Source: Pseudobdellovibrionaceae bacterium
Lineage (GTDB): Bacteria; Bdellovibrionota; Bdellovibrionia; Bdellovibrionales; Bdellovibrionaceae
Direction: 5' to 3'
Assembly (NCBI GenBank): GCA_044359815.1
Contig: JBIKLL010000053.1
Location: forward strand, 1-19,269
Length of the DNA stretch: 19,269 bases
Positions 1 through 17,550 of this stretch are shown here, one piece after another (the stretch's first letter is position 1; every line of letters starts with the position of its first letter). The notes below the pieces were generated by a model. It saw nothing but the letters and a program-made list of their open reading frames with translations, was not told the origin of the DNA and made no database searches. A program made the translations under genes and the position numbers.

Positions 1-184
1 CGGAAATTTTAATTTCGGCAGATATCAAATGGGTGGGTTCCAAAATACCTGCAAATCGTTTTTTGGATTTCAGAGCACCCCTCGCAAAGGCTGCGACTCG
101 GCGGCCCTCGTCGGTCAGCATGTGGATCACTAAATCGGCTTCACCAGTTTTGATTTTTTTTAAAATAATAGCATTGGCTCGCAT
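1..184 (-). CDS. recO: DNA repair protein RecO, N-terminal part (runs off the left edge)
   Basis: Manual minus-strand translation from ATG at 184: MRANAIILKKIKTGEADLVIHMLTDEGRRVAAFARGALKSKKRFAGILEPTHLISAEIKIS, matching the RecO N-terminal OB-fold pattern (AIIL..GEAD..T.E.G...A.ARGA.KSK.RF.G.LEP). The ATG overlaps the upstream stop (TAATG). Not in the ORF track because it is truncated. Confidence 0.93.
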   Translation of the reverse strand, partial: MRANAIILKKIKTGEADLVIHMLTDEGRRVAAFARGALKSKKRFAGILEPTHLISAEIKIS

Positions 185-1122
185 TACAGATCTTGTATGC
201 CTTTGGCAGCCGCCTGTAAATCCTGGGGTTTGATTTTATCTAATGCGGCGGCATCCAAGATAACCATTCCCCTTAAAACTGGCTCGCTGATTGGCCCATC
301 CCACCAATCCTTGTAGTCCGCCATCAATCCCCAATGACAGGGGCTGGTAGTCACAGCCGCAGTTTGCGAAATTTTGTTTTTAGCCATCAGCCACTGTATC
401 ATGGCATCGGCATTGGCTTCGGTACTGTAAACCACTGCCCGATCAAAAATTCTGTGCTCAGTTTTTAAAAAAGCACTGAATCCCTGTGGAAGATTGCCTT
501 CAAAATCCAATACTGTTTGTTTGGAAATCATGGGGTTCAGATTTTTTTGGACCAATGCCAGGACCTGATCCTGTTCCCAGCTCATTTTGTGCGCCATCTG
601 CACTGCAGGTTTAAATCTGGAACCCAAAATAGCCACCGCCAATTGATCATCAATTGAGTTGATCAAACAAGTATAGGCAGAGGGTTCAGTTTTTAAGGAG
701 CCTGCGTGATGATCAACAATGATGTGATAAATCTTTTTGTCATTTAATGCTTTATCAATTGCTGCCAGATCGATGGTTTCAGCCGTGATTGGATGATTGG
801 CAAAACTGAGCACAAACAGTGTGTCTTTATTAAGACCTGAAATAAAATTTTTTGAATCCGCCAATGCCGATGAACCCACAGGTGTGATTTGAAATCCTTG
901 TTTAAAGAAATAAGGTGACACAAAATCAAAGGCAAAGGACCAACCCTTTACCCAAGTCAGACTGTTTTTGTATTCTAGAAACTGCGAAATCCCTGTGGTT
1001 AGCTCGTAAATCGCATGCGAAAGCCCTTTGTAACATCGAACTGGATTTTGAATTTTCAGAAATTCAGAAATATTTTGATTAGTTGATTCCCATTGATCCA
1101 ACCTGTTGATTTCAATCTTCAT
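184..1122 (-). CDS. Hypothetical protein, degenerate cysteine desulfurase / class-V aminotransferase-like fold
   Basis: 312-aa ORF. By-eye colinear similarity to IscS/NifS blocks: FFKQGFQITPV, TLFVLSFANHPITAE, HIIVD, AVTTSPC. No SxHK PLP-lysine motif at the expected position. Confidence 0.6.
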   Translation of the reverse strand: MKIEINRLDQWESTNQNISEFLKIQNPVRCYKGLSHAIYELTTGISQFLEYKNSLTWVKGWSFAFDFVSPYFFKQGFQITPVGSSALADSKNFISGLNKDTLFVLSFANHPITAETIDLAAIDKALNDKKIYHIIVDHHAGSLKTEPSAYTCLINSIDDQLAVAILGSRFKPAVQMAHKMSWEQDQVLALVQKNLNPMISKQTVLDFEGNLPQGFSAFLKTEHRIFDRAVVYSTEANADAMIQWLMAKNKISQTAAVTTSPCHWGLMADYKDWWDGPISEPVLRGMVILDAAALDKIKPQDLQAAAKGIQDL

Positions 1123-1205
1123 ATCTAAAATTGTCCCTCAATAAATTTGCATTGCCAATGTTTTGGATAGTTGTCTGCAGATGTCTGACACCCCCTGGGT
1201 TCAAA

Positions 1206-1221
1206 ATCTCATTCTGAGACA
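1206..1221. promoter_or_regulatory. Short dyad TCTCA-N3-TGAGA in a divergent promoter region, possible transcription-factor site
   Basis: aTCTCAttcTGAGAca, about 50 bp upstream of the candidate sigma54 element. Confidence 0.3.
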
Positions 1222-1269
1222 CTTTATGTGTTCTAAATCATTGTACCGATGTTGAGCTGGTCCTTGGTC

Positions 1270-1285
1270 AGGCCTATTGGTTGCT
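1270..1285 (+). promoter_or_regulatory. Candidate sigma54 (-24/-12) promoter for the cell-wall hydrolase gene
   Basis: AGGCCTATTGGTTGCT: GG(1271-1272)-N10-GC(1283-1284) with a TTGCT -12 box. The -24 box is imperfect versus TGGCAC. Confidence 0.35.
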
Positions 1286-1298
1286 AAGTATTACTGAT

Positions 1299-2687
1299 AT
1301 GGGGAAACTGCGTCTATTTATGTTAATCACTGCTGCAAGCCTGATAATGGGATCCAATGCCCACGCTAATTCCCTATGCGCTGATGGTAATCAGAGACAG
1401 AAAAAAACTCTGATAAAAAACGTTAATATCAGAGTGCAGAATTCGGATGGCAACCTAGAGCTGGATAACAGATACTTTACTTTGCCTGCTGGTACGGTGA
1501 TCAGTGTCTGTAACGACAGCACCAAGATATTAAGACCCAAATGGATTGAAAGCGACATGGGCACATTGAGGTCATCGACAAAATGGACTAATGATCACAG
1601 ACATCCGTTTTCATCAGATTTTAGGATTGAATCTGTGCCCGGTGGCTTTGGATATAAAGATTCAGACATAAAAGATATCAATGAAGGCGCAGCCAACGGC
1701 AGAAAATTTATTTCACGCAGTCCTTCGCTGTTTCCAGAAAACGATGCTGATCCTTCTGTGAATTCACCAAGCGGCAATACTGATGATGAAATCCCACCAG
1801 TCATTCCAGTGGAAGGTGGAGCGCCCTACACCCCACCGGTTCGTCAATCTGATGATCCTGAGTTGGGATCCGGCAGCCCTGGATCAGGTTCTGGTGCTGG
1901 TTCTGGTTCGTCGCCGTCAGCACCATTGCCGATGATTCCGCCGGAAAATACTGGGCAGGATAGTTATGAAACCGAAAGCACGGAATCATTCACTCCAACA
2001 ACGGGAGTCAGCAATCTAATGTTTGATACAGCTCAACCCAGTGAATTGGCAGAGCTTAACAAATTTGCGGGTTGTGAGACTTTGGCAAACGCCCAACCTG
2101 ACAGAGGGAAATTGCTTCAGTGTTCAGATTCGGTATCCAGATACTGTGGAAATAGATCTGGTTTGCAAGCTCGTAAAGTTTGTTTAATTAATTTAAAATC
2201 ACCAAGGCTTCGAGAATTTATTGCCTTAACAAAAACAGCCTATGGTGAAGCTGACCGAAGAATGAAACAACAAGATATGTTAGGAATTATGAAAGTTGTC
2301 GAAAACAGAGCTGGCAAATGCAGGACGCCCTCGAAAACCTGCGATCCATTGGCAATTGTGATGCAATACAAACAATTCTCGTTTTTTAATTCGGACCGAC
2401 TAGGTGGGACTCGAACCATTAAGGCGACTTCCAGTGATTCACATATGAGAAATGCGATTGATGCTTATTTGCGATTTCAAAATTCAACCTTTGGAGAAGG
2501 TTGGAACAATGTATTCCATTACCATGCGACCTATGTAGCTCCCAATTGGGCTCCAAAGATGAATCCATTGAATTTTGAGAGGGGCACTGTCAACGGATTA
2601 GAATTGAAAAGTCATGGCACTCATCATATCTTTTTGAGAAGCAGAGGATGGGGTCCGCATTCGTCATTCAGAATGTATACTAGATAA
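1299..2687 (+). CDS. Secreted cell-wall hydrolase with C-terminal SleB-like (Hydrolase_2) domain after a Pro/Gly/Ser/acidic linker
   Basis: Signal-peptide-like N-terminus MGKLRLFMLITAASLIMGSNAHA (ATG 1299 preferred to TTG 1281). C-terminal motifs ALTKTAYGEA (catalytic Glu), VVENR, IVMQYKQFS, FHYHATYVAPNWA and GTHHIF are typical of the SleB/CwlJ family. Confidence 0.85.
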   Translation: MGKLRLFMLITAASLIMGSNAHANSLCADGNQRQKKTLIKNVNIRVQNSDGNLELDNRYFTLPAGTVISVCNDSTKILRPKWIESDMGTLRSSTKWTNDHRHPFSSDFRIESVPGGFGYKDSDIKDINEGAANGRKFISRSPSLFPENDADPSVNSPSGNTDDEIPPVIPVEGGAPYTPPVRQSDDPELGSGSPGSGSGAGSGSSPSAPLPMIPPENTGQDSYETESTESFTPTTGVSNLMFDTAQPSELAELNKFAGCETLANAQPDRGKLLQCSDSVSRYCGNRSGLQARKVCLINLKSPRLREFIALTKTAYGEADRRMKQQDMLGIMKVVENRAGKCRTPSKTCDPLAIVMQYKQFSFFNSDRLGGTRTIKATSSDSHMRNAIDAYLRFQNSTFGEGWNNVFHYHATYVAPNWAPKMNPLNFERGTVNGLELKSHGTHHIFLRSRGWGPHSSFRMYTR

Positions 2688-2698
2688 AGGAACACAAG

Positions 2699-3211
2699 AT
2701 GCTTAAAGCAAGTATTTCAGCTATGAGTTTTCACAGGAAAAACCTAAGCATTTTATTAACTTCAGCCATTTTAGTTTTTGTATGTTCTTTGATTTTCGCA
2801 AATACTGTGTTCGCAAACACAGTTCGTGAAGAATGGAAAATTATTGGGGACTATCCCAATTATTCTTTGCAATTAAAAACAGATGCGAAGGTCAAAATTG
2901 CCCTGACCTCTGAAAACATAGTTCCTAAAATCGTAATGGTCATGCCGCATGAAAAACATCAAGACGTGGATTTGATCGTTTATTTTTCAGGACGGATAGG
3001 CACACGAGAAATGACCGACATTTATCATGCAGTCATGTACAACAATCGAACAAAAAAAATTATGGGTGTTGCGCCCTACAGAGTCACAGAAATGGGAAAA
3101 TTTAAAAAACTGCTCCCCAAAGATGAGCAACCAGCATGGAGCTCTGATCAAAAAAGTATAAAAGTCACCGTCCCTGACACCGGTGAAAAACAGTCCTTCG
3201 AGGTCAAATAG
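2699..3211 (+). CDS. Secreted/periplasmic hypothetical protein
   Basis: 170-aa ORF starting 11 bp after the hydrolase stop, with AAAGGA RBS. Basic plus hydrophobic signal-like segment ending in VFA. Confidence 0.8.
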   Translation: MLKASISAMSFHRKNLSILLTSAILVFVCSLIFANTVFANTVREEWKIIGDYPNYSLQLKTDAKVKIALTSENIVPKIVMVMPHEKHQDVDLIVYFSGRIGTREMTDIYHAVMYNNRTKKIMGVAPYRVTEMGKFKKLLPKDEQPAWSSDQKSIKVTVPDTGEKQSFEVK

Positions 3212-3440
3212 GGTCCTCGACCTTAGTGCTGACTATGATTTAGATTTTATAATTTTATTTTCCGTGCACCTTAGCCACTTTCGCAAAGGGTTGAGAACTT
3301 GTATTTGGCCAAAGGTCCTATGTTTAAATTTACCGAATGAAATTCAAAGATTTAACCGAAAAGTTCGCTGTGGTATTTTGAATTGCCGAAGGACGTATGG
3401 ATCTGCGGCGCCACTAATTTTTTCAGAAAAGGGCTTAGGC

Positions 3441-4073
3441 TTGAAACAGCTTTTGGCAGCACTGATTTTATTTTCAATGATTTGCACAGCAAATGCTGCC
3501 GAATCATCTAAAAAATCCGGTCGTAAGCCGGCCTCAGTCACAGCAGAAAAATCCAAAACCAAGAAAAAGAAATCCCAAAAATCATCAGGAATAAAAAAAG
3601 ATAATCAAAAATCAACCAGCAAGAAAAAAACTGTGACAGCAAAAAACGCTAAAACTAAAAAAACCATTCGCAGAATCACAAGCCAAGTGGCTAAAAAAAC
3701 AGGAATGGCTGAAGACCTAAGAAGCATTATCGAAGACATCAAAACAGTGCTGTTAAATGAAGCCATCAATTACCAAAAAAAGCTGGATTTTATTAATACC
3801 AAATCCACAGAAATAACTGAAATGCTGGATAATTCCGAGGGCAACACAGCTGAAATTGCTGAGCTTCATAGATTTTCAGACTTGGTAACTGCTCTGCAAG
3901 CATTGGACATCAAGGACTCAGGATTTGAATCAAGCTCTTGCGAACTGGCGATATCGGAGCTGCAAAAAAACAAGACCGTCGGCAACACCACTGAGCTTGA
4001 AAACCTGTACATCAACCCCTTGGTCGGCGAGCTTTCCGACATCCTCACTCGAGTCTGCAAAAAACCAAATTAG
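3441..4073 (+). CDS. Secreted hypothetical protein with Lys-rich N-terminal region and helical C-terminal domain
   Basis: Start re-assigned to in-frame TTG 3441 (MKQLLAALILFSMICTANA signal peptide, purine-rich AAAAGGG upstream), giving 210 aa. The ORF-track extension to 3183 overlaps the previous gene and does not look protein-like. Confidence 0.75.
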   Translation: MKQLLAALILFSMICTANAAESSKKSGRKPASVTAEKSKTKKKKSQKSSGIKKDNQKSTSKKKTVTAKNAKTKKTIRRITSQVAKKTGMAEDLRSIIEDIKTVLLNEAINYQKKLDFINTKSTEITEMLDNSEGNTAEIAELHRFSDLVTALQALDIKDSGFESSSCELAISELQKNKTVGNTTELENLYINPLVGELSDILTRVCKKPN

Positions 4074-4296
4074 AATTTTTTGTGGAATTATTTCTTTAAT
4101 TTTACACCTTGTGAATACTTGCTAACGGCCGCGGGCTCATCTCTCGTATTGAGTCATTTAGATTAATCAGTTTTCTGATTAATAAATTATCATAAAACTG
4201 ATTAATCTAAATGACTCAACACCAGATATGCCCCGCACGCTCGCAAATGTATTCACAAGATGTAAAATTAAAGAAATACTTCCATAGAAAATTCTA
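4071..4296. repeat. Long imperfect palindromic element, family A copy 1 (weak pairing continues to 4059-4308)
   Basis: Outer arms 4071-4118 / 4249-4296 (44 of 48 Watson-Crick pairs). Perfect 26-bp inner stem 4149-4174 / 4194-4219. GC-rich asymmetric segments lie between them. Homologous to 14951-15228 in inverted orientation. Confidence 0.95.
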
Positions 4297-4435
4297 GCTT
4301 GTTTTTTTTAAGAAGTTTTATAATCAATAACCGACTAGAAATTTGTAAGCTGAAAATAATTTTCCAAGGTACTTTTTCTATTTTTATGCCTTATGCAGCG
4401 AGCGCGCCACCGAGCCTCCCGACTGGCATCAACTC

Positions 4436-4595
4436 TGCAGAATTTAGTAATAAAAAAATGAGAACTTATTTAAAAGGGTTCTCCGCGGAGCCAGGATGGC
4501 GGGGGCGCAGCCCGAGCGATTTGAGTGGCGATATTAAATTAAGAGGCTGTAACCCTTTTAAGTAAGTTCTCATTTTTTTATTACTAAATTCTGCA
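4436..4595. repeat. Long inverted repeat (element B): 45-bp AT-rich arms around a 70-nt, largely GC-rich loop
   Basis: 4436-4480 is the reverse complement of 4551-4595 with a single T/G mismatch (4469/4562). The loop contains CTCCGCGGAG, GCCA-GGA-TGGC and GGGC-GCA-GCCC. Confidence 0.93.
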
Positions 4596-4619
4596 TGGCT
4601 GACCAGGGTAAGCTATGGC

Positions 4620-5147
4620 TCAGATGCCGTGGCGGTGGCGTTCTTCGTCGTCCAAGTGTGATTGAATGCCGCCCTTCAGTTGTGGCCGGTAAGCAAGCTT
4701 TTGGATATCATAAATAAAGTTTGTACCGCTTAAACCTGGAGTCTGCCATTCGGGACCCATTCTGACTGCATCCACTGGGCAAGCCTCTTCGCAATAACCG
4801 CAGAATACGCATCGGAGCATATCGATTTCGTAATGAATCGGATATTTTTCCACCGATGGATCCTCAGATTCAGCAGCGATAATTTTAATGCATTCAGCAG
4901 GGCAATTGGTCGCACACAACATACATGCCGTGCATCTCAAAGAACCATCTTTTTTGACTGTCAAAACATGGTTGCCCTTGAACCTTGGTGAATACTCAAA
5001 TTTTTGCTCGGGGTAATTGATGGTTAGCATTTGTCTTTTGTATAAAAGATTTCTGATCAAATGCTTTCCGGTAATCCACAAACCAACCAAAATCCCTGGC
5101 AAATACCACTTAGAAAGTTCAGAAGTGTTTTTTTGAACGACGCTCAT
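4620..5147 (-). CDS. nuoI: NADH-quinone oxidoreductase subunit I
   Basis: TINYPEQK...RFKG. Two CxxCxxCxxxCP motifs (CTACMLCATNCP, CVFCGYCEEACP). Confidence 0.96.
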   Translation of the reverse strand: MSVVQKNTSELSKWYLPGILVGLWITGKHLIRNLLYKRQMLTINYPEQKFEYSPRFKGNHVLTVKKDGSLRCTACMLCATNCPAECIKIIAAESEDPSVEKYPIHYEIDMLRCVFCGYCEEACPVDAVRMGPEWQTPGLSGTNFIYDIQKLAYRPQLKGGIQSHLDDEERHRHGI

Positions 5148-6703
5148 AAGCTGCCTCGCTTAAATACAAATTCGTTTTTCTTACGGTGCTCCAGCATAAC
5201 TGTGTCTTGTGGTCTTTCAGCTTCAACAAACAAATTCTTTTCTGGCTGTACCTGCAAATCCTGGCCAGTTACCAAAGCTGCAAACTGATCCAAACCTAAT
5301 GCTCCAGGAACAACAGATGTGACCTTTTTAAAGGTTTGCGCAATTCCGGCATGATTAACAAATGTTCCTGATTTTTCTGTATAAGACTTCATCGGGATAA
5401 TCATTGAGCCCTCTGGCAAAATATTAAGCTCGGCACATTTTGTTGATTGAAGCCAAATTACTTGTGAAGCCTTTGCTGCTAATTTGATTTTTTCATTCAA
5501 ATCAGGAAAATAATTTTTATTTTCAGGACCAGCAACGATCACAGTTTTAAAACTGCCTTTTTCAAAATCAGACCAATTGGTTTTAATTCCAAATTTAGTC
5601 AAAGCTGCCAATAACCCCTTAGTATTGGGATTTCGGTCACCACGTAACAAAATTCCGTCAAATTCTTCAGACTTTTCTTTGTTATTAAAATAATGAAACA
5701 CATTTTTTGTTCCAATAGTTTTAGTCACCATGGTTAAAAAGGCATCAAATTCTTCATTAGTATATTGGCCTGTTAAAACCACTGCCACTGAATCGCCCTT
5801 AAGTTTTCCGGAGAGCTCTTTGCTAGCCAAGGTAGCATCCATATCAACCCAAGCGCCGTTAACCTTCTTCTGAGCAGTTAAATTGCGAAACTCTTTGTTG
5901 ATGTACTTATAAACATCGCGACCTTCATCACACATCCAGTGTCCGTTTACCTTTTCGTTGTAAACAGGCTTAACCCTGAAAAACCCTTCTTTGTTGTAAT
6001 ACATTTTCACATTACAACCAGCACTGCAGCCGTTACACACAGTCTGAGAATCTTTCAAATACCAAACCCGCTGACGGAATCTGAAATCCTTAGAGGTCAA
6101 GGCTCCTACGGGGCAAATATCAACAGTGTTTACCGAATACTTATTGTTGAGCTTTTTACCCTCGACAGTGCCGATTTCGGATCGATCTCCACGATTAAAA
6201 ATCCCCAGTTCAGAAGTTTTGGGAACTTCGTCGCAGAAACGCACACACCGCGAACACAAAATACATCTTTCTGAATCCAAAACAATTGTTGGTCCCAAAT
6301 CAACGACCTTGTGTTTTTTAACTTTGCTTTCAGACATTTCAGGAGTGTATTTGCCAAATTCCATATACTGCTCTTGCAAACCACATTCACCCGCCTGATC
6401 ACATATCGGACAATCCAATGGATGATTGATCAAATGAAAATCCAATCCCCATTTTGCAGCGTCTTTAACTTTCGCAGAAGTGTTGTTGATTTTCATACCT
6501 TCGGTCACAACTGTATTGCAGGCAATTTGCAACCTAGGATTTCCTTCGATTTCAACCATGCACAGTCGACAGACTCCTGCCACGGTCAAACCTGGATGCC
6601 AGCAATAATGAGCAATTCTTTGTTTATTTTGAGTCATTGCTTCGATGATCGTAGTGCCAGCTTTAACCTCTAGCTCTACCCCATTAATGGTGCATTTGGG
6701 CAT
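5144..6703 (-). CDS. nuoG: NADH-quinone oxidoreductase subunit G (short form, 519 aa)
   Basis: CWH..AGVCRLC..IAC (N1b), HPLDCPICDQAGEC (N5), CILCSRC...CP (N4), CNGCSAGC...WMCDEGR (N7-type). Confidence 0.95.
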   Translation of the reverse strand: MPKCTINGVELEVKAGTTIIEAMTQNKQRIAHYCWHPGLTVAGVCRLCMVEIEGNPRLQIACNTVVTEGMKINNTSAKVKDAAKWGLDFHLINHPLDCPICDQAGECGLQEQYMEFGKYTPEMSESKVKKHKVVDLGPTIVLDSERCILCSRCVRFCDEVPKTSELGIFNRGDRSEIGTVEGKKLNNKYSVNTVDICPVGALTSKDFRFRQRVWYLKDSQTVCNGCSAGCNVKMYYNKEGFFRVKPVYNEKVNGHWMCDEGRDVYKYINKEFRNLTAQKKVNGAWVDMDATLASKELSGKLKGDSVAVVLTGQYTNEEFDAFLTMVTKTIGTKNVFHYFNNKEKSEEFDGILLRGDRNPNTKGLLAALTKFGIKTNWSDFEKGSFKTVIVAGPENKNYFPDLNEKIKLAAKASQVIWLQSTKCAELNILPEGSMIIPMKSYTEKSGTFVNHAGIAQTFKKVTSVVPGALGLDQFAALVTGQDLQVQPEKNLFVEAERPQDTVMLEHRKKNEFVFKRGSL

Positions 6704-8000
6704 GATCGCCTCCTCTTAAAGCTGGAGTGAACAGATCTCCGCGAACTTTGGATCTGCCCTCTTTCACAAAAAATTCAAATTCATCACGAAATTTGGAAAC
6801 AAAACTCAGTACTGGCAATGCCGCTGCATCTGAAAGCGCGCAGATAGTTCGCCCCTTCATATTATCAGCTACCTTTTCAAGTAATTCGATGTCTTGTAAC
6901 CGGCCGCGACCAGATAAAATAGAATGAGTGATTTTATTTAACCAACCCGTTCCTTCCCTGCACGGAGTGCACTGTCCGCAGGATTCATGATGATAAAAAT
7001 GCATCAAAACGCCCAGCAGATCGACCATACATTGAGAATCATCAATCACTATGATGGCGCCCGATCCCAGCATGGATCCCATTTGTGCCAAACATTCGTA
7101 ATCCAAAGTGGCCTTTTCAGCTTCGACAGCAGTTAATACAGGTGCAGATGATCCCCCTGGGATAACTGCTTTCAGTTTTCGTCCTGGTTTTAATCCACCA
7201 CCCAATTTATAAATCATATCCTTTAATGGATAGGCCAATACTGTTTCATAGTTGCCAGGTCTCATCACGTTTCCGCTTAATGAAAACAATTTTGTACCCG
7301 CAGATTTTTCAGTTCCAAATTTTTTGTAAGCAGCGGCACCGTCTTTGATTATCGGAACAACAGCCGCCAATGTTTCAACATTGTTTACAATTGAGGGCTT
7401 TCGCAAATAGCCCTGAATCGCCGGAAACGGAGGTTTCAGTTTTGGCTGGCCTTTTTTACCTTCGAGGGACGAAATCATTCCAGTTTCTTCGCCGCAAATG
7501 TAGGCGCCTGCTCCAGCATACACATCTAAATCAAAATCAAATCCGCTACCTAAAATATTTTTACCTAATAATCCTGCATCATAGGCTTCTTTTAAAGCGT
7601 TGCTGATGACTTCGATGGGGAAATTGTATTCACCACGGATGTAAATGTAACCTTTGTTTGATTTTATGGCGAAGGCCGAAATAATCATGCCTTCAATCAA
7701 TTGATGGGGAGCTCTTTCCATCATCATACGGTCTTTGTAAGTTCCGGGCTCGCCCTCATCAGCATTGCACAATAAATATCTGGGTTGGCCGTTGTCTGGT
7801 AAAAATCCCCACTTAACACCAGTCGCAAAACCCGCTCCGCCACGGCCCCTTAGGCCTGAGCTTTTGACTTCTTCAATAATCGCTTTGGGCTGCATCTTAA
7901 GTGCTTTTTTTAAAGTCTCGTAGCCACCTAATTTTTGATAGCCCTTGATGCCGATAAAATCTTCTTTGTCATAATGTTCTGATAAAAGTTTGGTTTCCAT
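6684..8000 (-). CDS. nuoF: NADH-quinone oxidoreductase subunit F
   Basis: SGLRGRGGAGF, CNADEGEPG, GAGAYICGEET, ESCGQCTPCREG...TICAL. Confidence 0.98.
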   Translation of the reverse strand: METKLLSEHYDKEDFIGIKGYQKLGGYETLKKALKMQPKAIIEEVKSSGLRGRGGAGFATGVKWGFLPDNGQPRYLLCNADEGEPGTYKDRMMMERAPHQLIEGMIISAFAIKSNKGYIYIRGEYNFPIEVISNALKEAYDAGLLGKNILGSGFDFDLDVYAGAGAYICGEETGMISSLEGKKGQPKLKPPFPAIQGYLRKPSIVNNVETLAAVVPIIKDGAAAYKKFGTEKSAGTKLFSLSGNVMRPGNYETVLAYPLKDMIYKLGGGLKPGRKLKAVIPGGSSAPVLTAVEAEKATLDYECLAQMGSMLGSGAIIVIDDSQCMVDLLGVLMHFYHHESCGQCTPCREGTGWLNKITHSILSGRGRLQDIELLEKVADNMKGRTICALSDAAALPVLSFVSKFRDEFEFFVKEGRSKVRGDLFTPALRGGDHAQMHH

Positions 8001-8473
8001 TATTTCAATCCTCGAATGATATTCATCGCTGATTCGTGTGTTAGATTTTCGTAGTACCTGTCATTGATTTGCATCATCGGAGCAGTCCCACAGGATCCCA
8101 AGCATTCAACCTTTGAAACCGTGTATCTGCCATCAGTAGTGACTTGATCAAAATCAACCTTCAGTTCCTTGACAATGTGATAGGCCAATTCTCTGCTGCC
8201 GTTCACTGCACAAGAAATATTGCAACACACTTGAATGTGATGTTTCCCGACAGGTTTTTGATTAAACATTGTATAGAATTTAAAAACTTCATTGATTTTT
8301 GCAGCTGGGATTTCCATGACTTTTGACAAATGGTCGATGACTTCTTGATTGACCCAACCTTTGTGTTCTTTCTGAGCAATGTAAAGCGCAGGAATAATCG
8401 CGGACTCTTTAGTCTCGTATCTTTTGAGTTCTTTTTGAACCGCAGTTAATCCTTCTTTTGAAAGTTCAAACAT
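8000..8473 (-). CDS. nuoE: NADH-quinone oxidoreductase subunit E
   Basis: FYTMF..PVGKHHIQVCCNISC...VECLGSCGTAPMMQIND ([2Fe-2S] N1a). Confidence 0.97.
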   Translation of the reverse strand: MFELSKEGLTAVQKELKRYETKESAIIPALYIAQKEHKGWVNQEVIDHLSKVMEIPAAKINEVFKFYTMFNQKPVGKHHIQVCCNISCAVNGSRELAYHIVKELKVDFDQVTTDGRYTVSKVECLGSCGTAPMMQINDRYYENLTHESAMNIIRGLK

Positions 8474-8483
8474 TTAAATTCTC

Positions 8484-10166
8484 CTACCTATCCAACTCAC
8501 CAGCGATCACATTCATACTGGCCACAGTTGCAATTGCATCTGCCAGCATAGCGCCTTTAACCACTGTTGGAAAACTTTGATAAATTGCAAAACAAGGTGG
8601 CCGCACCTTTAACCGATAGGGATTGGCACTGCCATCACTGACTAAATAAAATCCCAATTCGCCATTGGCGGCCTCGGTGGCGTCATAGACTTCACCGATC
8701 GGTGGACGCAAGCCCTTGATGACCAACATAAAATGATTCATCAAACCTTCGATGTTTCCGTAAACATCTTTTTTCTCGGGCAATACAATGCCTTTATCGC
8801 GGATTGTGTAATCACCACTGGGCATGTTTTTACAAACCTGTTCAACGATTCTGATCGATTGTCGCATTTCTTCAACGCGAACTAAATACCTGTCATAGAT
8901 ATCGCCATTGGTTCCTACTGGAATTTCAAAATCCAATTTGTCGTAGCCATAATATGGAGTTAATTTTCTTAGGTCTAATCCAACACCGCAGGCTCTTAAC
9001 AAAGGACCTGTGTATCCCCATTGAATCGCATCGCTGCTGTTGACCGGGCACACGCCTTGGGTTCGCTTGATAAAGATTTTGTTTTCAATCATTAGCTTTG
9101 TGATTTCATCGACACCGGCACGCATTTCTTTGCAAAATGCTAAAACCTCATCAAACCAACCAGCTGGTGCATCCTGAGCCATGCCCCCGATTCGAGTCAT
9201 TGATACCGTCAAGCGGGCTCCGCACAGTTTTTCAAACAAAGTATAAACTTTTTCTCGGTAAGTGAATAAATGGAAAAAAGAAGTCAACGCCCCTAAATCC
9301 ACACCGCCCGTACCCACGGCAATAATATGATCAATGATTCTGGATAATTCACACAGCAAAACCCTCATGGCCTGAGCTTTTGCTGGAATTTCAACACCCA
9401 ACAGTCTTTCAACGGCTTTGCAGTAGCCCACGTTGTTCATAGGTGCTGAACAATAATTTAATCTGTCGGTATACGGAATCACCTGATTATAGGGATGAGT
9501 TTCCGCCATTTTTTCAAAACATCTGTGCAGATAACCAATTTCGCAGGCCGCTCTGACCACAGTTTCGCCATCCAGTTCAGCCATCACCCTTAGGGTTCCA
9601 TGCATTGCTGGATGAGATGGTCCCACATTCAGTGGCACCATATTTGGATTTAAAACTGAGCCGTCAACACCGTCTTCGTTGTCAAAATGAATGGGCAGAG
9701 TTTGTGTGCAATGTTGCTGTTGATCAGCTTCGTAGTCCTTGCGCAGTGGATGTCCAACAAATTGATGATGGGTTAAAATTCTGCGTAAATTAGGATGACC
9801 TTTGAACACGATACCGAACATATCGTAGGCTTCGCGTTCAAACCAATCAGCGCCTCGCCAAATCGGCAGTGCGCTTTCTATCGATTCACCCTCTGCCAGG
9901 GCAACCTTCACGCGGATTCTGGAGCCGTCTGCAGAATTAAACAAATGATAGACAACTTCAAAAGGCTTTTCGCGATCCGGATAATGGGCCCCGCAAACAT
10001 CCATCAAAAAATTAAATTTAAAATGGTTTTTCAAAAATCCCAGCACCTGCCTGATTTCGGTTTTTGGCACAGTTAAAACTGTGTCCCCGACTTGTTCCAG
10101 CAGTGAAAAAGAATTTCCAGAAAATTTTTGATTGAGTTCTTTTTTAATGGTTTCAAGATTATTCAT
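8484..10166 (-). CDS. nuoCD: Fused NADH-quinone oxidoreductase subunit C/D
   Basis: NuoC part: [30 protein letters not shown]. NuoD part: [27 protein letters not shown]-terminal GELDR. Confidence 0.97.
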
Positions 10167-10704
10167 AAGGTGGTTTCCAATTGTCTTTCCAAGGCCGTGG
10201 CCCGCAGTCTTTGATCATTTTCTGAAGGGTCATCACTCCGTCCAAAACGGCTTCTGGAGTGGGAGGACAACCTGGAACGTAAACATCAACAGGGATGACT
10301 TTGTCACAGCCTTGCAGCACGTGATAGGCACGGTAAAATCCACCAGAGCTGGCACAAGCTCCCATTGAAATCACAAATTTGGGTTCAAGCATTTGTCTGT
10401 AGATACGAACCAATATCGGCGCCATTTTTTCGGTGATGGTTCCGGCCACTAATAACAAATCCGATTGTCTGGGTGAAAAACGAACAACCTCGGCACCAAA
10501 TCTGGCTAAATCATATTTTGGTCCCATCACTGACATTAATTCGATTCCGCAACAGGCGGTACCATAAGGCAATGGCCACAAGGCGTTTCGCTGCCCCCAT
10601 GCCATCAAGGCATCGAGCTTTGAAGTGAAGGCAAAAGACTTCGCCAGTTCTTCATCGGTTGATGTTTGCGAAACCTGTGATGATGACGTTGCAAGCTGAG
10701 ACAT
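10159..10704 (-). CDS. nuoB: NADH-quinone oxidoreductase subunit B
   Basis: [41 protein letters not shown] upstream. Confidence 0.98.
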
Positions 10705-10879
10705 ATTTGCTCCGTGATTTTATGTATTACCGAAGTTTTGCAAGGTTTCTGTTTTCAGTCAAATTATCAAAATATTATCAATTTCCACAATAAATTTGTC
10801 ACCTCGCATTGAAAGACAATTTCAGTTTCATAGCTGGACTATGCGTGGTGCAATCTTCCAACGGCTAAGGAGGGGAAAA

Positions 10880-12361
10880 ATGCCAAAATCACCGTTAATG
10901 ATAATGAAAAGCATTTTAGTTGCAGCAATGATGCTAACACTAAATGCACAAGCTGACGATTTACTGATCAAGGTTAAAAAAGGAACTGCTGAAAAGATGG
11001 TTTCCAGATTTACTTTGCTAGGCAATACTCAGGCAGAAGCTTTGACTGACACATGGATCCACTTAAAGGGACCATCAATGCAGCAAATAAATCAGATGAG
11101 AGTCCAATTGGGCTCGGACAGCATTTTATATGTGCAGCCAAACTATAAGTTGGTGATGTACGGAAACTATAAATCTCAAGATCCAGTGATCAGATCCATG
11201 GCTCTTCAGAAAATGCAGGAAGTCAGTGGCGACAATCCAATAGATGATTTGTTTCCAAAGGCTGCAGACAATCCAGCAATTCCTGCTGCGCCATCTCAAT
11301 CAACTGGTTCAGATCCATTGATTAGCAGCCAATGGGGAATGTTGGACATTGGTGCCAGATCAGCTTGGAATGTTACCAAAGGTAACCCCAACATCGTTGT
11401 GGCTGTGATCGACACAGGTGTGGACTACACTCATGAAGATCTGTTGCCAAACATGTGGAGAAATCCAGGCGAATCAGGTAACTCAAAAGAAACCAACGGA
11501 ATTGACGACGACAAAAATGGTTACATTGACGACGTAGTCGGATGGGATTTTGCATATAACGACAGCAAACCTTACGATTTATCGACTTCAAACCCTTTTG
11601 AGTTAATCATCAGCGGTGGAAACCCAGGTCATGGCACACACTGCGCCGGTAACGTTGCAGCTCGTGGCGACAATGGCAAAGGTATTTCAGGAGTAGCTCC
11701 TAATGTTCGCATTATGGCTATCAGATTTTTGACTGAAAAAGGTCAAGGAACCACTGAAGGCGCGATTAAATCTATCAAGTACGCAGTCGACAATGGCGCC
11801 AAGGTTTTATCAAATTCTTGGGGTAGCGAAGGCGACGATCCCAAAGAAGGACAATTGAATCAAGCATTGAAAGACATCATCAAGTACGCTCAAGACAAAG
11901 GTGTTTTGTTTATAGCTGCTGCTGGTAATGGTCACCAAGGTGCTGGTTACAATAATGACACTGATCCACGCCCAGGAGTTCCTGCAAGCTATGATAACGA
12001 AAACATCATCAGCGTCGCAGCCTTGGATTCAAACAATCAATTGGGTTCATTTTCAAATTGGGGAGCGCGCACTGTAGACATTGGCGCACCCGGTGTGAAA
12101 GTGTTTTCAACTGTGCCTGGGAATCAGTATCAAGACACAGTGATCAATTTACCTGATTTCGGTTTGGTAGCGACATGGGATGGTACTTCAATGGCCACTC
12201 CTCACGTTGCTGGAGCTGCAGCTTTGTATTGGTCAGCTCACCCAGAAAAATCATGGAGTGAAGTCAAAGCGGCTTTGTTAAACACAGCTGCTAAAATCCC
12301 CGCGATGGCAGGAAAATCTGTCAGCGGAGGAAAACTAAATGTTGATGCTTTACTGAGATAA
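10880..12361 (+). CDS. Secreted subtilisin-like serine protease (S8)
   Basis: Catalytic triad motifs VAVIDTG, HGTHCAG, GTSMATPHVAG, oxyanion-hole AAAGN, and a Ca-binding-type NGIDDDKNGYIDD insert. Start re-assigned to ATG 10880 (AAGGAGGGG RBS, signal peptide ending AQA). Confidence 0.96.
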   Translation: MPKSPLMIMKSILVAAMMLTLNAQADDLLIKVKKGTAEKMVSRFTLLGNTQAEALTDTWIHLKGPSMQQINQMRVQLGSDSILYVQPNYKLVMYGNYKSQDPVIRSMALQKMQEVSGDNPIDDLFPKAADNPAIPAAPSQSTGSDPLISSQWGMLDIGARSAWNVTKGNPNIVVAVIDTGVDYTHEDLLPNMWRNPGESGNSKETNGIDDDKNGYIDDVVGWDFAYNDSKPYDLSTSNPFELIISGGNPGHGTHCAGNVAARGDNGKGISGVAPNVRIMAIRFLTEKGQGTTEGAIKSIKYAVDNGAKVLSNSWGSEGDDPKEGQLNQALKDIIKYAQDKGVLFIAAAGNGHQGAGYNNDTDPRPGVPASYDNENIISVAALDSNNQLGSFSNWGARTVDIGAPGVKVFSTVPGNQYQDTVINLPDFGLVATWDGTSMATPHVAGAAALYWSAHPEKSWSEVKAALLNTAAKIPAMAGKSVSGGKLNVDALLR

Positions 12362-12383
12362 TTTTTTTCAGTTGCATAGAACC

Positions 12384-12415
12384 AAAAAAGCCGCAGACCT
12401 CTGCGGCTTTTTTTT
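12384..12415. terminator. Bidirectional intrinsic terminator
   Basis: AAAAAA-GCCGCAG-acct-CTGCGGC-TTTTTTTT between the convergent protease and permease genes. Confidence 0.9.
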
Positions 12416-13802
12416 ATGCTTTGTGCGCAGTTGATCTGAAAAACAACCAATAGACCGGTAAACCCAGAGCAATAATTAAAAGACCCATTCCAGATTCGTT
12501 GGGTGCTGTGATTAATGTGTTAATCAATAACAGCACTGACAATGTGACAAACAATATCGGTATCACCGGATACAGTGGGACTTTGTAGGCTCGTTCGGCA
12601 TTTGGCATTCGCTTACGCAACAGCATGACTGCAACGCCATTCATCGCATAAAAAAGCCACGCACTAAAAACCACATAATCAGTCAGCTGATCAAAAGTTC
12701 CCGACAGTGCCAATCCACAGGCAATCAAACCCTGCACAATAATAGAAATCACTGGAGTCTTGGATTGACTGTGTATAAAAGCAAAAATTTTAGGAAAGGC
12801 TCCGGCTTCAGCCATGGCAAAGGGCACTCGCGCAGATGTCAGTATCGATCCATTCATCGCACCCAATGCTGATATCACAAAAGCCACTGACAGGACTGTG
12901 ATGCCTTGGTCACCCATAAATATTTTAACAGCTTTTGTGGCAACAGGCAGAGCTTCTGGAAAATTTTTAGAATTTGCCGACAAAATTTCGCTAACAGGCA
13001 AAGCCACGAAATAAGCTAAATTGACCAAACAATAAATTGCGATGCACGAAAACACTCCCAAAATCAGAGCGCGCGGAATGTTTTTCTGTGGGTCTTTGAC
13101 CTCGCCAGAAGCCATTCCTAAATTGTTCCAACCATCGTAGGCCCAAAGTGCTGCCAGCATAGCTGTACCAAAAGCTGACATCCCAGCGAATTCAGTTTGC
13201 AGATTAAAATTTTCTACCGATCCCCCTGACAAAAACAAAGCCCCAAAAATCAAACCACCAATTAAAAAAACTTTTAATATCGTTAAAAAAACTTGAAGCT
13301 TCCCACCAAATTTTACAGCCAAACAATTTAAAAAAGTAAAAACACAAATAAATAAAATTGCCATCGAAACTTTTGCCGAATCATTTGGGTAGGCAACCAG
13401 CGCCCCTAAAAAAGTTGCTGCACCCACAGAATAAGCCGCAATGGAGCCTGGCGAACCTATCCAAAATCTCATCCAGCCATATAAAAAACTGACAGCATTG
13501 CCGTAGGTTTTCTGCAGATAAATATATTCTCCACCCGCTTTTGGAAACAATGATCCTAATTCAGCGTAGGTCAGAGCCCCAGCTAATGACAATAACCCCG
13601 CAACCACCCAAGCCAGCATCACAACTGATGGTGACTGCACAGTCTGAGTCATGATTCCTGTTTTAAGAAAAACTCCAGTACCGATAATACTTCCCACGAC
13701 GATCGCTATGCATTCATTCAATCCTAAACTTCGAATCAATTTTGCTGATTCTGAATTTGCGGAACTGACATCATTCTTAAAAATATTTTTCTGATCGCTC
13801 AT
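12414..13802 (-). CDS. APC-superfamily amino-acid permease (LAT/SteT-like)
   Basis: GSIIGTGVF, YAELGSLFPKAGGEYIYL, LWAYDGWN, EVKDPQKNIPRA, RAYKVPLYP; about 12 hydrophobic segments. Confidence 0.94.
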   Translation of the reverse strand: MSDQKNIFKNDVSSANSESAKLIRSLGLNECIAIVVGSIIGTGVFLKTGIMTQTVQSPSVVMLAWVVAGLLSLAGALTYAELGSLFPKAGGEYIYLQKTYGNAVSFLYGWMRFWIGSPGSIAAYSVGAATFLGALVAYPNDSAKVSMAILFICVFTFLNCLAVKFGGKLQVFLTILKVFLIGGLIFGALFLSGGSVENFNLQTEFAGMSAFGTAMLAALWAYDGWNNLGMASGEVKDPQKNIPRALILGVFSCIAIYCLVNLAYFVALPVSEILSANSKNFPEALPVATKAVKIFMGDQGITVLSVAFVISALGAMNGSILTSARVPFAMAEAGAFPKIFAFIHSQSKTPVISIIVQGLIACGLALSGTFDQLTDYVVFSAWLFYAMNGVAVMLLRKRMPNAERAYKVPLYPVIPILFVTLSVLLLINTLITAPNESGMGLLIIALGLPVYWLFFRSTAHKA

Positions 13803-13864
13803 TATTTTCTCCTCAGATGATTTTTATGCTTTTACAGGCAAAAAAATAAAAATAAACAATTTAT

Positions 13865-13879
13865 TAAGACACTGTCTTA
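13865..13879. promoter_or_regulatory. Perfect dyad TAAGACA-c-TGTCTTA in a divergent promoter region
   Basis: 7-bp inverted repeat with a 1-nt spacer in the AT-rich intergenic DNA between the permease and the 13937 ORF. Confidence 0.35.
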
Positions 13880-13936
13880 TTTTTATCATTGCCTGTGGTC
13901 TGTAGGCTTTGTTTGAATGTCTAAAGAGGGGAAAAT

Positions 13937-14947
13937 ATGAAATTTTCATTGTTATTTGCATTTGCGAGCTTCCTAATCACCATCAATTTACAAGCCAGCA
14001 TCGGCAGTCAATCCAACGCAGAAGGGTTCAGTGCAAAGTTAACCGAGGCCAAACAGATTCTTGGTTTTTGCCAGCAGTACACAAATGAATTTGCAACCTT
14101 GGTAAAGTCTTGTTCAAAATACAGCGACAGAGCTGTGGAAGGCTTAACAACAGTGACCAATGATATTTGCATTTCACTGAAAAACAAAATTGCAGAATTT
14201 GAAAGCTTTCTGGGCAGTAGCGAATGCCACAGTCGCAGTCCCAATGTTTTTACTGAGATGTCCCGCAACCTAGGCAATTTGCAAACAGCTATGGCCGATG
14301 CCAGACAAAAAATCACCCAATACAAAGCCAGTTTGTTAAATATTGAAAACGTGCCATTCACAGGATCGCTGTCCCGGGAAATATTGATTGTTTGGGCCAT
14401 GGAAGTCACAAGCAAATATAACCTGTGCCCGATTCAAACCCTGGGCGAATCTGATCAATTGTTTTTTGGTCAAAGCAACGATGCCACTAAAATCTATTTC
14501 AGATGGAAACAAGCCTTGATGGGAACCAACCGATTGGAAAACGAAATTTTAGCTCGAGAAACCACAGCTAAAACAAAAATCGAAAGGGATCATATTGCCG
14601 AAATCAGAAAAATGATGAGCGGGACAGGATTAGCACTGGAAATTGGCCCCAATGGGTTGCGCACTACGAACACCAGAATTTCTTGGTCAGTATGGTTAAA
14701 TTCCAGAACCAGCGATGTGATGAACCAAGGTCGCTCAACATTGAGTGTGGCGGCTCAGAATGCGTGGCTGCAACAGTCTCGTAGAGGGTTTTTATTGAAT
14801 GTATCTGGCGCTTTGGCTGCTGAGGCAACCGAGCTAATGGATCAATCGCGAAATCGCAGTACCGAGGTTTTAAAGCTGTGCAAAAGCAAACCGCAAAATC
14901 TTGAGTACTATGACGAAGGCGAAGCCGATGATGGGATCTGGTACTAA
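13937..14947 (+). CDS. Secreted hypothetical protein (helical, 6 Cys, acidic C-terminus)
   Basis: 336-aa ORF with AGAGGGG RBS and signal peptide MKFSLLFAFASFLITINLQA. No recognisable motif. Confidence 0.85.
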   Translation: MKFSLLFAFASFLITINLQASIGSQSNAEGFSAKLTEAKQILGFCQQYTNEFATLVKSCSKYSDRAVEGLTTVTNDICISLKNKIAEFESFLGSSECHSRSPNVFTEMSRNLGNLQTAMADARQKITQYKASLLNIENVPFTGSLSREILIVWAMEVTSKYNLCPIQTLGESDQLFFGQSNDATKIYFRWKQALMGTNRLENEILARETTAKTKIERDHIAEIRKMMSGTGLALEIGPNGLRTTNTRISWSVWLNSRTSDVMNQGRSTLSVAAQNAWLQQSRRGFLLNVSGALAAEATELMDQSRNRSTEVLKLCKSKPQNLEYYDEGEADDGIWY

Positions 14948-14950
14948 AAA

Positions 14951-15228
14951 CCAGCTTGTCCTCTTGCCTGTATTTAATTTGAATTTTAAAAAATTATTTC
15001 TATGATTTTACACCTTGAGAATACATTTGCGAGCGCGCATGGCATATCTGGTGTTGAGTCATTTAATTTAGTTAGGAATATGATAATTTATTAATCATAT
15101 TCCTGGCTAAATTAAATGACTCAATACGAGAGATGAGCTTGCGGCCGTTAGCAAGTATTCTCAAGGTGTAAAATCATAGAAATAATTTTTTAAAATTCAA
15201 ATTAAATACAGGCAAGTGGACCAGATGG
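14951..15228. repeat. Long imperfect palindromic element, family A copy 2 (inverted relative to copy 1)
   Basis: Perfect 62-bp arms 14963-15024 / 15155-15216, extending to 74 bp with 3 mismatches. Inner stem 15054-15084 / 15094-15124 has two T/G mismatches. Core 14992-15187 aligns without gaps to the reverse complement of 4086-4281. Confidence 0.96.
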
Positions 15229-15234
15229 AAAAAT

Positions 15235-16209
15235 CTAGGTGGCTGAGGCTGGTTGGAAATTGACGCTGATGCCATCTGTGGCTTTAGGAACTGATGTTCC
15301 GTGAAACCTGATAAAATTGCCTTCAGGTACGTATTCCCATCCATTAACGTTGTCCTGGGCTACAGGGACTCCATTGACAATCACCGTGATCGAATCCACC
15401 AGTGGAACCTTGTCCAGAACAAAGTCCGTCATGATCTGAACAATTCTGGATCTGATATTTTCAGTGGCCATGGCCAAAGTTGATTCGCAAATGGATTCAA
15501 CTTTACCGCCAGAGTGGTTTGCAAGGGCCAGATATCTGAGCCCTGGTTCTTTGTAATCAGAAGTTGTCGATGAGGTACAAACCGAATCCAAGTTATCAAC
15601 GCCAATAAAATTTAAAATCCAATTTTGTTTGGCTGTTTTACCTGGTGGTTTTAAGGCATCCAAAAAGGCAATGTCGTCATTGTAAGATCCAGATGAATTG
15701 TCGTCTTCGCTGGTCATAGCGACAATCGCCAACAGCGCATCTGATCTCAGAAATCCAGCTCCCTCTGTGGCCAAATAGTTCGCTGACAAAGACTTTTTGA
15801 TTGATGCAATTCCCTGCTCGACATCGTGACCATCAGTGCCCGCATTGATTCTGGCTTGTAAAAGACTTTTCAGATTAGGCGTAGCTGCTGTCAAAAATTT
15901 TGGTGAAGTCCCCAAAAATTTTCCACCGTTTCCACCAGAGATCGAATCAGAGGTCACCACAGCAATATGATAATCCATCGCAAACTGGTTCAGTGAATCG
16001 ATTAAATCATTGGCTTGCGCTGCCAATCGATTTTGATAAAGATCCATTGATAATGAATTATCCACCATTATCAACACATCGACTTTATTGTTATAGGTCA
16101 CTGTTTGAGGAAAATTCTGCTGAGCGGGAGGAACTGCAAACTGTTGTTGGCTGCAAGCAAGCTGGATCAGACTTAAGGCTAGGATCAGGGTTGTGAAAAG
16201 CGTTCTCAT
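15235..16209 (-). CDS. vWA-domain lipoprotein (CglB-like gliding/adhesion lipoprotein type)
   Basis: Start at ATG 16209 (GGAG RBS). Lipobox ..IQLA-C, MIDAS DxSxS in KVDVLIMVDNSLSM, plus VVTSD, EQG, FLRSDALLAIVAMTSEDD, and a C-terminal beta-rich domain. Confidence 0.8.
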   Translation of the reverse strand: MRTLFTTLILALSLIQLACSQQQFAVPPAQQNFPQTVTYNNKVDVLIMVDNSLSMDLYQNRLAAQANDLIDSLNQFAMDYHIAVVTSDSISGGNGGKFLGTSPKFLTAATPNLKSLLQARINAGTDGHDVEQGIASIKKSLSANYLATEGAGFLRSDALLAIVAMTSEDDNSSGSYNDDIAFLDALKPPGKTAKQNWILNFIGVDNLDSVCTSSTTSDYKEPGLRYLALANHSGGKVESICESTLAMATENIRSRIVQIMTDFVLDKVPLVDSITVIVNGVPVAQDNVNGWEYVPEGNFIRFHGTSVPKATDGISVNFQPASAT

Positions 16210-16235
16210 AAGTTTCTCCATGAGGCATCCACCAA

Positions 16236-17039: not shown

Positions 17040-17046
17040 ATGTACT

Positions 17047-17076
17047 ATTATACGGTATTTCTGAACCTGGGCTTAA
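17047..17076 (-). promoter_or_regulatory. Candidate promoter for a leaderless GYF-PilZ transcript (sigma70 -10, overlapping sigma28-like arrangement)
   Basis: Minus strand TTAAG-cccaggttcagaaat-ACCG-TATAAT-agtacat-ATG: perfect TATAAT 7 nt before the ATG, with no Shine-Dalgarno. TAAG-N15-ACCGTATA also resembles TAAA-N15-GCCGATAA. Confidence 0.45.
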
Positions 17077-17139
17077 GGCTTTTACTGTGATTTTTATTTT
17101 AAGACTGATTCAAGATTTTTTGATGATATTTTGTACACC

Positions 17140-17541: not shown

Positions 17542-17550
17542 TGACTGCCT

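Follow-up and report, generated by a model that had tools for sequence, protein, structure and literature searches.

Comparison with known palindromic repeats

Palindromic intergenic repeats are common, and partners and uses are known for very few of them. Enterobacterial repetitive intergenic consensus (ERIC) sequences, or intergenic repeat units (IRU), are imperfect palindromes of at least 100 nt that often lie behind genes and have longer forms derived from internal insertions. Bacterial interspersed mosaic elements (BIMEs) consist of a conserved palindromic unit that alternates in orientation, with the units arranged in tandem. The attC sites and the end hairpins of insertion sequences (IS) such as IS200/IS605 or IS608 are recognised as folded single strands, in which the active strand is set by conserved unpaired bases; the remaining stem is free to vary, and IS608-type insertions are oriented with replication. 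Here we describe a family of long, imperfectly palindromic repeats, hereafter called rods, which occurs twice in a stretch of 19,269 nucleotides from a Pseudobdellovibrionaceae bacterium (assembly GCA_044359815.1, contig JBIKLL010000053.1, positions 1 to 19,269 of the forward strand; hereafter the window). The rods are like ERIC/IRU sequences and BIMEs in being intergenic palindromes, have no known sequence relation to them, and nest their units where BIMEs place them in tandem. Unlike an attC array, the copies are dispersed and lie in both orientations; the genome has two Phage_integrase matches, neither of them near the window.

The closest described system is the REPIN, a hairpin formed by a pair of repetitive extragenic palindromes (REPs). 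As described by Bertels and Rainey (2011; PMC3116915), REPINs carry one conserved motif per arm, with a 71-nt spacing of the two motifs, and a variable spacer that is kept hairpin-forming by compensatory changes; folding was predicted to occur in single-stranded DNA or mRNA. The abstracts of later papers present REPINs as vertically persistent. Measured against this account, the present family is likewise high-copy and extragenic, with two inverted conserved motifs and a paired variable spacer that shows compensatory changes. It differs in its rods, which are 2 to 5 times longer (213–594 nt versus the 71-nt motif spacing), in its bulged 30-nt pair in place of a short REP palindrome, and in that most copies consist of two nested, oppositely oriented units. 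Because REPINs are marked by a conserved arm motif, a spacer that is free in sequence while its pairing is kept, and a high copy number behind genes, we place the family with the REPIN-type repeats. Our preferred reading, which we hold with about as much confidence as doubt, is that it is a REPIN-like non-autonomous repeat that is recognised as a hairpin and has possibly been co-opted as a 3′ end element.

The kind of element is known from REPINs, and this family is new. In agreement with the original prediction, made from the letters of the window alone, the whole window gave no Rfam match at gathering score, 6S RNA included. The long forms of the repeat gave only sub-threshold matches to eukaryotic miRNA-precursor hairpin models, on both strands, and short forms of five loci from other genomes gave no match at E ≤0.1. 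The literature on such repeats in Bdellovibrio yielded nothing relevant, and the extracts retrieved on nested miniature inverted-repeat transposable elements (MITEs) held nothing closer than general reviews. The claim that the element is undescribed can therefore be kept for the family, which is without an Rfam match, but not for the kind, which the cited parts of PMC3116915 already describe.

A large family of nested, inverted rods

The host genome is a draft of 2.95 Mb in 125 contigs (91% complete, 41% G+C), in which the window is contig C46. BLAST with both window copies hit 94 places in this genome. Arm A of the conserved core had 130 matches (90–100% identity) and arm B had 65, making 195 in 87 clusters, which are spread over at least 60 contigs and occur in both orientations. 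The family thus comprises about 90 loci with about 130 conserved cores, far beyond the two copies from which a multicopy element had originally been proposed. Such repeats break the short-read assemblies of these uncultured predators, and 34 of the 87 clusters lie within 450 nt of a contig end.

The unit joins two components. One is a conserved imperfect hairpin core, formed by arms A and B together with a short closing stem, in which the bulges and mismatches are fixed; the other is a set of stems that are free in sequence provided that their arms pair. Both window copies are of the single-core short form, which is the minority form in this genome. The commonest form is a rod of ~400–450 nt with a second unit inverted inside the first. 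In such a two-core rod, the outer stem is followed inwards by arm A and a middle stem of 38 bp; then come the oppositely oriented second core, the conserved 12-bp stem, the variable stem and, at the centre, the tip. Two recognisable cores are present in 39 clusters (A+ B- A-, A+ B+ A- or B- A+ B+ A-), and in all 39 they are inverted relative to each other. Most two-core rods probably descend from one composite, so that their inversion does not represent 39 independent events. The rod at C6:20960-21560 is nested differently and likewise inverted, and deleted and reduced forms are also present in the genome. In this genome, the family may have grown to its ~90 loci while gaining long AT-rich stems and becoming mostly an inverted composite. 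The nested two-core form predicts one functional core on each strand.

From the two window copies it had been concluded that all lengths are fixed, that the tip is invariant, and that a factor reads bulge and tip at a fixed helical distance. Fixed lengths hold for the window copies but not family-wide, where the rods span the wide range given above. The tip has a spacing of 59 in 30 copies and a spacing of 37, with another loop, in 18 copies; in two copies (C93_11208 and C13_32808) the asymmetric tip loop is flipped relative to its own core, and other genomes have other tips. Since both tip and lengths vary across the family, a reading at fixed distance is unsupported. The central proposal of the original prediction, an undescribed structured element in many copies with a bulge that would be recognised, does hold up.

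Frozen core and freely varying stems

Sequence variation is distributed very unevenly along the rod. For 27 cores with spacing 59, the pairwise difference per site averaged 0.046 in arm A and 0.05–0.10 in the conserved stem, rose to 0.14 in both the tip and arm B, and was highest in the variable stem (0.33–0.35). In these 27 cores, 689 of 729 stem cells were Watson-Crick pairs, as were 373 of 405 variable-stem cells, for which shuffles reached a mean of 269 and a maximum of 306. Across 23 core copies, 17 of 49 pairs had changed on both sides, compared to a shuffle mean of 7.9, and none of 500 shuffles reached 17. Within this genome, the 17 doubly changed pairs are confined to the stem helix, and none falls in a helix of the core. 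Hence, the core keeps its sequence down to the mismatches, whereas the stems keep only their pairing. Part of the compensatory pattern arises because both arms are inherited as one block.

These results bear out two expectations of the original prediction, namely that the repeat is a structured, non-coding, multicopy palindrome and that its GC-rich asymmetric region is constrained. The family separates a frozen asymmetric core from freely varying stems unusually clearly. In the reading that we prefer, the repeat would multiply and persist as a folded single strand, and the bulged core would be the module recognised by a trans-acting protein. Recognition by such a protein would explain why the sequence and asymmetry of the core are frozen, and stems that need only pair would explain the compensatory pattern. 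The copies would survive immediately downstream of genes and might serve there as 3′ end hairpins.

The two window copies illustrate this pattern at single positions. A repeat scan aligned positions 4086-4281 without gaps to the reverse complement of 14992-15187 (196 nt, 86% complementary), and a scripted count returned exactly the 28 differences reported earlier. About 20 of these had been judged to preserve pairing, and comparison by coordinates gave 10 position pairs with changes on both arms, equal to 20 of the 28 differences. Six of these double changes lie in the 15-bp stem (4161/4207, 4162/4206, 4166/4202, 4171/4197, 4172/4196 and 4173/4195), three in the outer stem (4096/4271, 4098/4269 and 4112/4255) and one in the GC-rich part (4133/4234). 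A single mirror register gave nine pairs; the count of 10 was obtained after the inner stem was re-paired by hand on its own centre (partner = 8368 minus position).

Each window copy is itself a long imperfect palindrome, with inverted repeats at 4054-4118/4249-4313 and at 14951-15024/15155-15228. The predicted fold has an energy of -121.7 kcal/mol in copy 1 (z = -19.4) and -154.2 kcal/mol in copy 2 (z = -23.3), and for neither copy was any of 200 shuffles as good. In lake-water metagenomes, contigs from all four runs, each coded as a separate study, run from unique flank into the element with 0 differences; examples extend over 9-4128, 14640-14992 and 15187-19000, and none bridges a whole element. 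Because these contigs enter both elements without differences, the palindromes of the window are not an artefact of this assembly.

An old core with a patchy distribution

BLAST of the 128-nt core in 40 relatives gave no convincing match. An exact 17-mer of arm A had 27 single matches, in unrelated phyla, among 185,579 species genomes from which the records of this genome were excluded, where ~69 matches would be expected by chance; in a viral collection it had none. A covariance model of the core built on the copies of this genome (model R1) found matches in five other genomes, belonging to three other families, among 150 other genomes of an order sample. These foreign copies carry the same letters on both arms, and their interiors are quite different, GC-richer and 61–168 nt long. 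RNAalifold, applied to 20 copies from four other genomes, gave 15 pairs, seven of which had changes on both sides. Because the foreign copies share the arm letters and covary, the bulged region is a real conserved hairpin. The larger alignments thus uphold the covariation first noticed between two copies, with 17 of 49 pairs in this genome and 7 of 15 across the four others.

A second covariance model (R2), built from the foreign copies only and containing no sequence of this genome, recovered 21 copies here and revealed two further carrier genomes in the order. Outside the order, R2 found no copy in 127 genomes of families f14-f33 from a phylum sample. Seven other genomes of the same order are thus carriers, with 54, 43, 12, 11, 5, 3 and 3 copies at E ≤0.001. 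In these carriers, the core lies within genome-specific palindromic arms, and the rods measure ~130–270 nt. No other sampled genome of the host's own family carries the core, neither among 31 searched with R1 nor among nine searched with R2. Judged from these sequence comparisons, the core is older than the repeat family of this genome, and it is order-wide but patchy.

The patchy distribution favours an element that is mobile or losable, and the covariation of the core between genera favours a folded single strand. A partner protein, if it exists, should be findable by contrasting the few carriers with the many repeat-free relatives.

In one of the carriers, G170, the segments C4:544254-547334 (L085) and 551507-554054 (L089) share 2,548 bases that are 100% identical. 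The two segments are inverted, lie ~7 kb apart near a contig end and hold one core each; they represent a large inverted duplication or an assembly feature.

Genomic position and orientation

All gene contexts in this study come from a crude caller of longest open reading frames (ORFs; minimum of 100–120 aa) and not from a gene finder. The neighbouring genes are convergent at 33 of 51 classifiable clusters, tandem at 15 and divergent at 3, against 411, 1668 and 424 such spacers genome-wide (p = 1.6e-14). In other carriers, convergent contexts account for 15 of 47 copies placed between two ORFs in G043 and for 18 of 37 in G170. The rods in this genome occupy a median of 95% of the convergent spacer, as measured by lenient palindrome extension, and at one or both ends 22 of 26 convergent rods come within 10 nt of a stop codon or overlap it. 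Furthermore, where a single-core copy lies between co-directional genes, its A-to-B strand is in sense orientation in 40 of 53 cases (p = 0.0003). By genome, the sense share is 21 of 26 in G043, 10 of 14 in G170, 4 of 4 in this genome and 5 of 9 in the remaining genomes (hand count).

Two individual sites may be mentioned here. At C2:870-1307, the outer arms reach 13 nt into both convergent ORFs, and both genes end in near-identical mirror-image codons with the same stop. The rod at C48:28234-28638 lies directly behind the 3′ end of an apparent tRNA gene, identified by eye from its T-arm-like sequence.

An alternative explanation for these position and orientation biases might be a cis-acting RNA element of the 3′ untranslated region. 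According to this explanation, an RNA-binding protein or ribonuclease would recognise the core hairpin within the mRNA, and the rod would stop or protect transcripts; the inverted two-core form would supply each converging transcript with one correctly oriented core, and spread would be secondary. We consider this possible rather than probable. It would agree with the sense orientation, with the filling of convergent spacers by rods that end at or over a stop, and with the single-core copies between co-directional genes of G043, which lie nearer to the upstream stop than to the next start. The covariation of the core between genera and the conservation of the modules, which exceeds that of flanking genes (see below), point the same way, and in carrier G057 the hairpin is preceded by an A-run and followed by a T-run in two of the five short copies shown. 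However, a downstream T-run is not general, and the two-core forms are not enriched between convergent genes compared to single-core forms (24 of 38 versus 10 of 14, p = 0.75). Patchiness within the order, with no carrier among the other genomes sampled from the host's own family, would also be odd for a host RNA. Moreover, the A-to-B strand agrees with the sign of the local GC skew in 60 of 90 cases, and the directions of transcription and replication are therefore inseparable as causes of the sense orientation.

An intrinsic terminator was considered and rejected on the evidence of T-runs; a T-run lies 3′ of the rod in copy 1 and in some copies of G057, and is not a general feature. A look-up of RNA runs that cover positions 3300-4700 of the window found none.

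Strand asymmetry of the mismatches

Unexpectedly, the transition mismatches of the rods are also strongly strand-biased. For this analysis, rods were folded without G·U pairs, and 1×1 loops were scored on the A-to-B strand. On that strand, A·C mismatches outnumber G·T mismatches by 36:4 in G043 and by 67:9 in G170, the latter count taking the outer and core parts of the rods together. In the main size class only, the ratios are 32:4 (G043) and 46:4 (G170), and these come from 11 and 22 position-and-type entries, respectively, a few of them hot. In single-core rods of this genome, the ratio is 19:6 for the outer and 8:2 for the inner stem. In its two-core rods, the ratio is 11:2 in the inner stem and 52:29 in the middle stem, and it is reversed (13:28) in the outer stem. 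Since the outer core is inverted, this reversal would be expected were each stem to take its orientation from the core it belongs to.

The strand on which wobbles preserve pairing is thus the complement of the sense-oriented strand. A·C mismatches on the sense strand with G·U wobbles on the antisense strand are the opposite of what pairing in a sense RNA would lead one to expect, and simple selection on a sense RNA hairpin is therefore disfavoured. Two explanations would fit the bias: the complementary strand may be the functional one, or repair or mutation may act strand-specifically in an extruded hairpin. A more far-reaching suggestion, which we regard as rather speculative, is that a strand-specific system, so far undescribed in the order, recognises the bulged hairpin. 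Candidates for such a system are hairpin-directed transposition or repair of single-stranded DNA without a Y1 or REP-associated tyrosine transposase (RAYT) enzyme, or an RNA-processing signal. If true, a strand-specific system would write the bias of A·C over G·T on the core-bearing strand and favour one core per strand. The strand asymmetry recurs in three genomes.

Module exchange at orthologous sites

A relative is represented in one metagenome assembly by four short contigs, whose flanks are 88.5–95% identical to this genome, and all four have an element at the same site. In the first orthologous pair, the variable stem and the tip have been exchanged wholesale (64% identity), and both versions are present elsewhere in this genome. 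In the second pair, the entire interior is flipped and has the other tip type. The interiors of the third pair differ by a nested unit, and the fourth pair differs by a deletion in this genome. Since the four orthologous sites differ by a swap, a flip, a nested unit and a deletion, we conclude that modules are shuffled between copies and that interiors invert.

The flipped interior between relatives and the inverted tip in two copies imply that the arms recombine as DNA. This might suggest that the repeat acts as a duplex DNA site, that is, a cruciform or protein-binding element of chromosome organisation, as has been proposed for BIMEs in E. coli. The intergenic location and the alternating orientation of the motifs do recall BIMEs. 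We nevertheless find a duplex site unlikely; the differences between the arms are conserved and covary across genera, and the mismatch types are strand-biased, which points to a folded single strand. Moreover, no protein is known to bind the repeat.

Persistence of copies and the search for a partner enzyme

Several observations, from the stability of the copies to the lack of an obvious enzyme, weigh against a REPIN-like, hairpin-recognised mobile repeat. The conserved modules are 96–98% identical between this genome and the relative, above the identity of the flanking, mostly coding DNA. A host function accounts for the slow evolution of the modules and for the sense orientation no less well than a selfish element does. 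Empty sites, excision products and insertion polymorphisms were not seen in the four contigs of the relative or in the contigs of the four metagenome runs, which stop inside repeats and drop rare variants. There is also no sign of very recent jumps, because the closest copy to copy 1 is only 92% identical. Around 34 loci in the seven other genomes, the neighbours are housekeeping genes, without a transposase. Furthermore, the orientation of the innermost core in this genome shows no signal with respect to GC skew or gene-strand bias (25 versus 21), a test that is uninformative because most rods hold both orientations and interiors flip.

Target duplications are not consistent either. Among 41 rods, the flanks include one repeated 10-mer and two 8-mers and otherwise resemble shuffled pairs. 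These data bear directly on whether the repeat could be an ordinary MITE, in which case a DDE transposase would bind to the arms as terminal inverted repeats and duplicate its target on insertion. Direct repeats of 10 bp at C48:28234-28638 and of 9 bp at C50:8836-9239 flank the rods, and long repeats are slightly commoner than in shuffled pairs, as an ordinary MITE would predict. However, 36 of the 41 rods have flanking repeats of ≤6 bp, as do the controls, so that a target duplication of fixed length is lacking. No parent IS sharing these ends was found by the Pfam searches given below or next to the 34 loci in other genomes. Conservation is internal while the outermost arms vary, and a transposase that binds duplex DNA gives no reason for conserved and covarying differences between the arms. 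Pfam searches of this 91% complete genome gave no match to PF01609, PF13358, PF01548, PF07282 or PF00078, and a single match to PF00665, located elsewhere. Taken together, we consider an ordinary MITE very improbable.

The remaining Pfam matches were two to PF00589 and nine to PF01797, and these searches of the draft genome did not reveal a cognate partner enzyme. The original prediction had suggested looking for copies that flank an HUH/RAYT, IS200/605, IS110 or reverse-transcriptase gene; no linked gene was found. The nine Y1 matches represent one RAYT-like gene and an eight-copy family of ~211 aa. The RAYT-like gene (C8:9501-10160) scores 72.5 bits to NF047646, below the cut-off of 80. It was rejected as the partner, because the inverted REP of 25–26 nt that flanks it (9474-9499 and 10266-10291) differs from the core. 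In REP-RAYT systems, a usually single-copy RAYT is flanked by the same REP or REPIN, whereas here the REP beside the gene is a different one. That REP recurs on many contigs, often as close inverted pairs, and forms a separate system of the REP/REPIN type.

The eight-copy family has a weak HUH/Y1 match and is found on C23, C47, C48, C49, C56, C100, C125 and C8 (for instance at C48:48162-48797). Its members share 86–92% identity, and the conserved unit of ~720 nt extends from ~80–100 nt upstream to the stop codon. It appears to be either IS200-like or domesticated. As a partner it was likewise rejected, because local alignment to arms A and B was no better than with shuffles. Of 40 relatives devoid of the element, 24 have several copies of the same family (up to 17 matches). 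Among carriers, G043 has no Y1_Tnp match despite its 54 copies in a 91% complete genome, the draft genome of G143 has no Y1 match, and no Y1 match lies beside a copy in the five carrier genomes searched, which are drafts in which absence is not proven. The rod family differs from IS200/IS605 elements in that this genome has no TnpB match (PF07282) and that the Y1 genes found show no link to the rods.

Features of the window

The coordinates of both copies and of the parts of copy 1 are collected in Table 1. The first 20 nt of copy 1 overlap the end of ORF 3183-4073. Copy 2 lies between convergent ORFs, 3 nt from the stop of ORF 13937-14947 (+) and 6 nt from the stop of ORF 15235-16221 (-). The ORFs that flank the window copies are ordinary, with a NuoI-like ferredoxin on one side of copy 1 and otherwise unknown proteins.

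Table 1. Positions of the two rods and their parts in the window.
Feature	Position	Strand	Description	Basis
Copy 1, whole rod, single-core short form	4054..4313	+	Core runs A to B on the + strand	Inverted repeat, fold, lenient palindrome extension
Outer stem, left arm	4086..4118	+	Pairs with 4249-4281; kept in many copies; homologous to the middle stem of two-core rods	
Core arm A	4118..4148	+	GC-rich 5′ side of the bulged region; nearly invariant family-wide	
Conserved closing stem, left	4149..4160	+	Pairs with 4208-4219; recognisable counterpart in other genera	
Variable 15-bp stem, left	4161..4175	+	Pairs with 4193-4207; its helix holds all 17 doubly changed pairs	
Tip, spacing-59 type	4176..4192	+	Asymmetric loop; inverted in C93_11208 and C13_32808	
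Core arm B	4220..4250	+	Bulged region, 3′ side; reverse complement related to arm A but diverged	
Copy 2, whole rod, single-core short form	14951..15228	-	Core runs A to B on the - strand	Inverted repeat, fold
Copy 2 core (arm A, inner stems, tip, arm B)	15023..15155	-	Motifs at 15122-15154 (A-) and 15041-15060 (B-)	Model R1, 143.3 bits

A second, unrelated palindromic repeat lies at 4416-4615, 100 nt from copy 1. Its arms (4429-4480 and 4551-4602) are AT-rich, 52 nt long and 92% complementary. The metagenome contigs break at this repeat as well. It has a GC-rich core of ~53 nt (~4466-4518), for which BLAST returned 54 rows including the window's own; it recurs on many other contigs, with an identity of 76–96% among the 40 matches listed.

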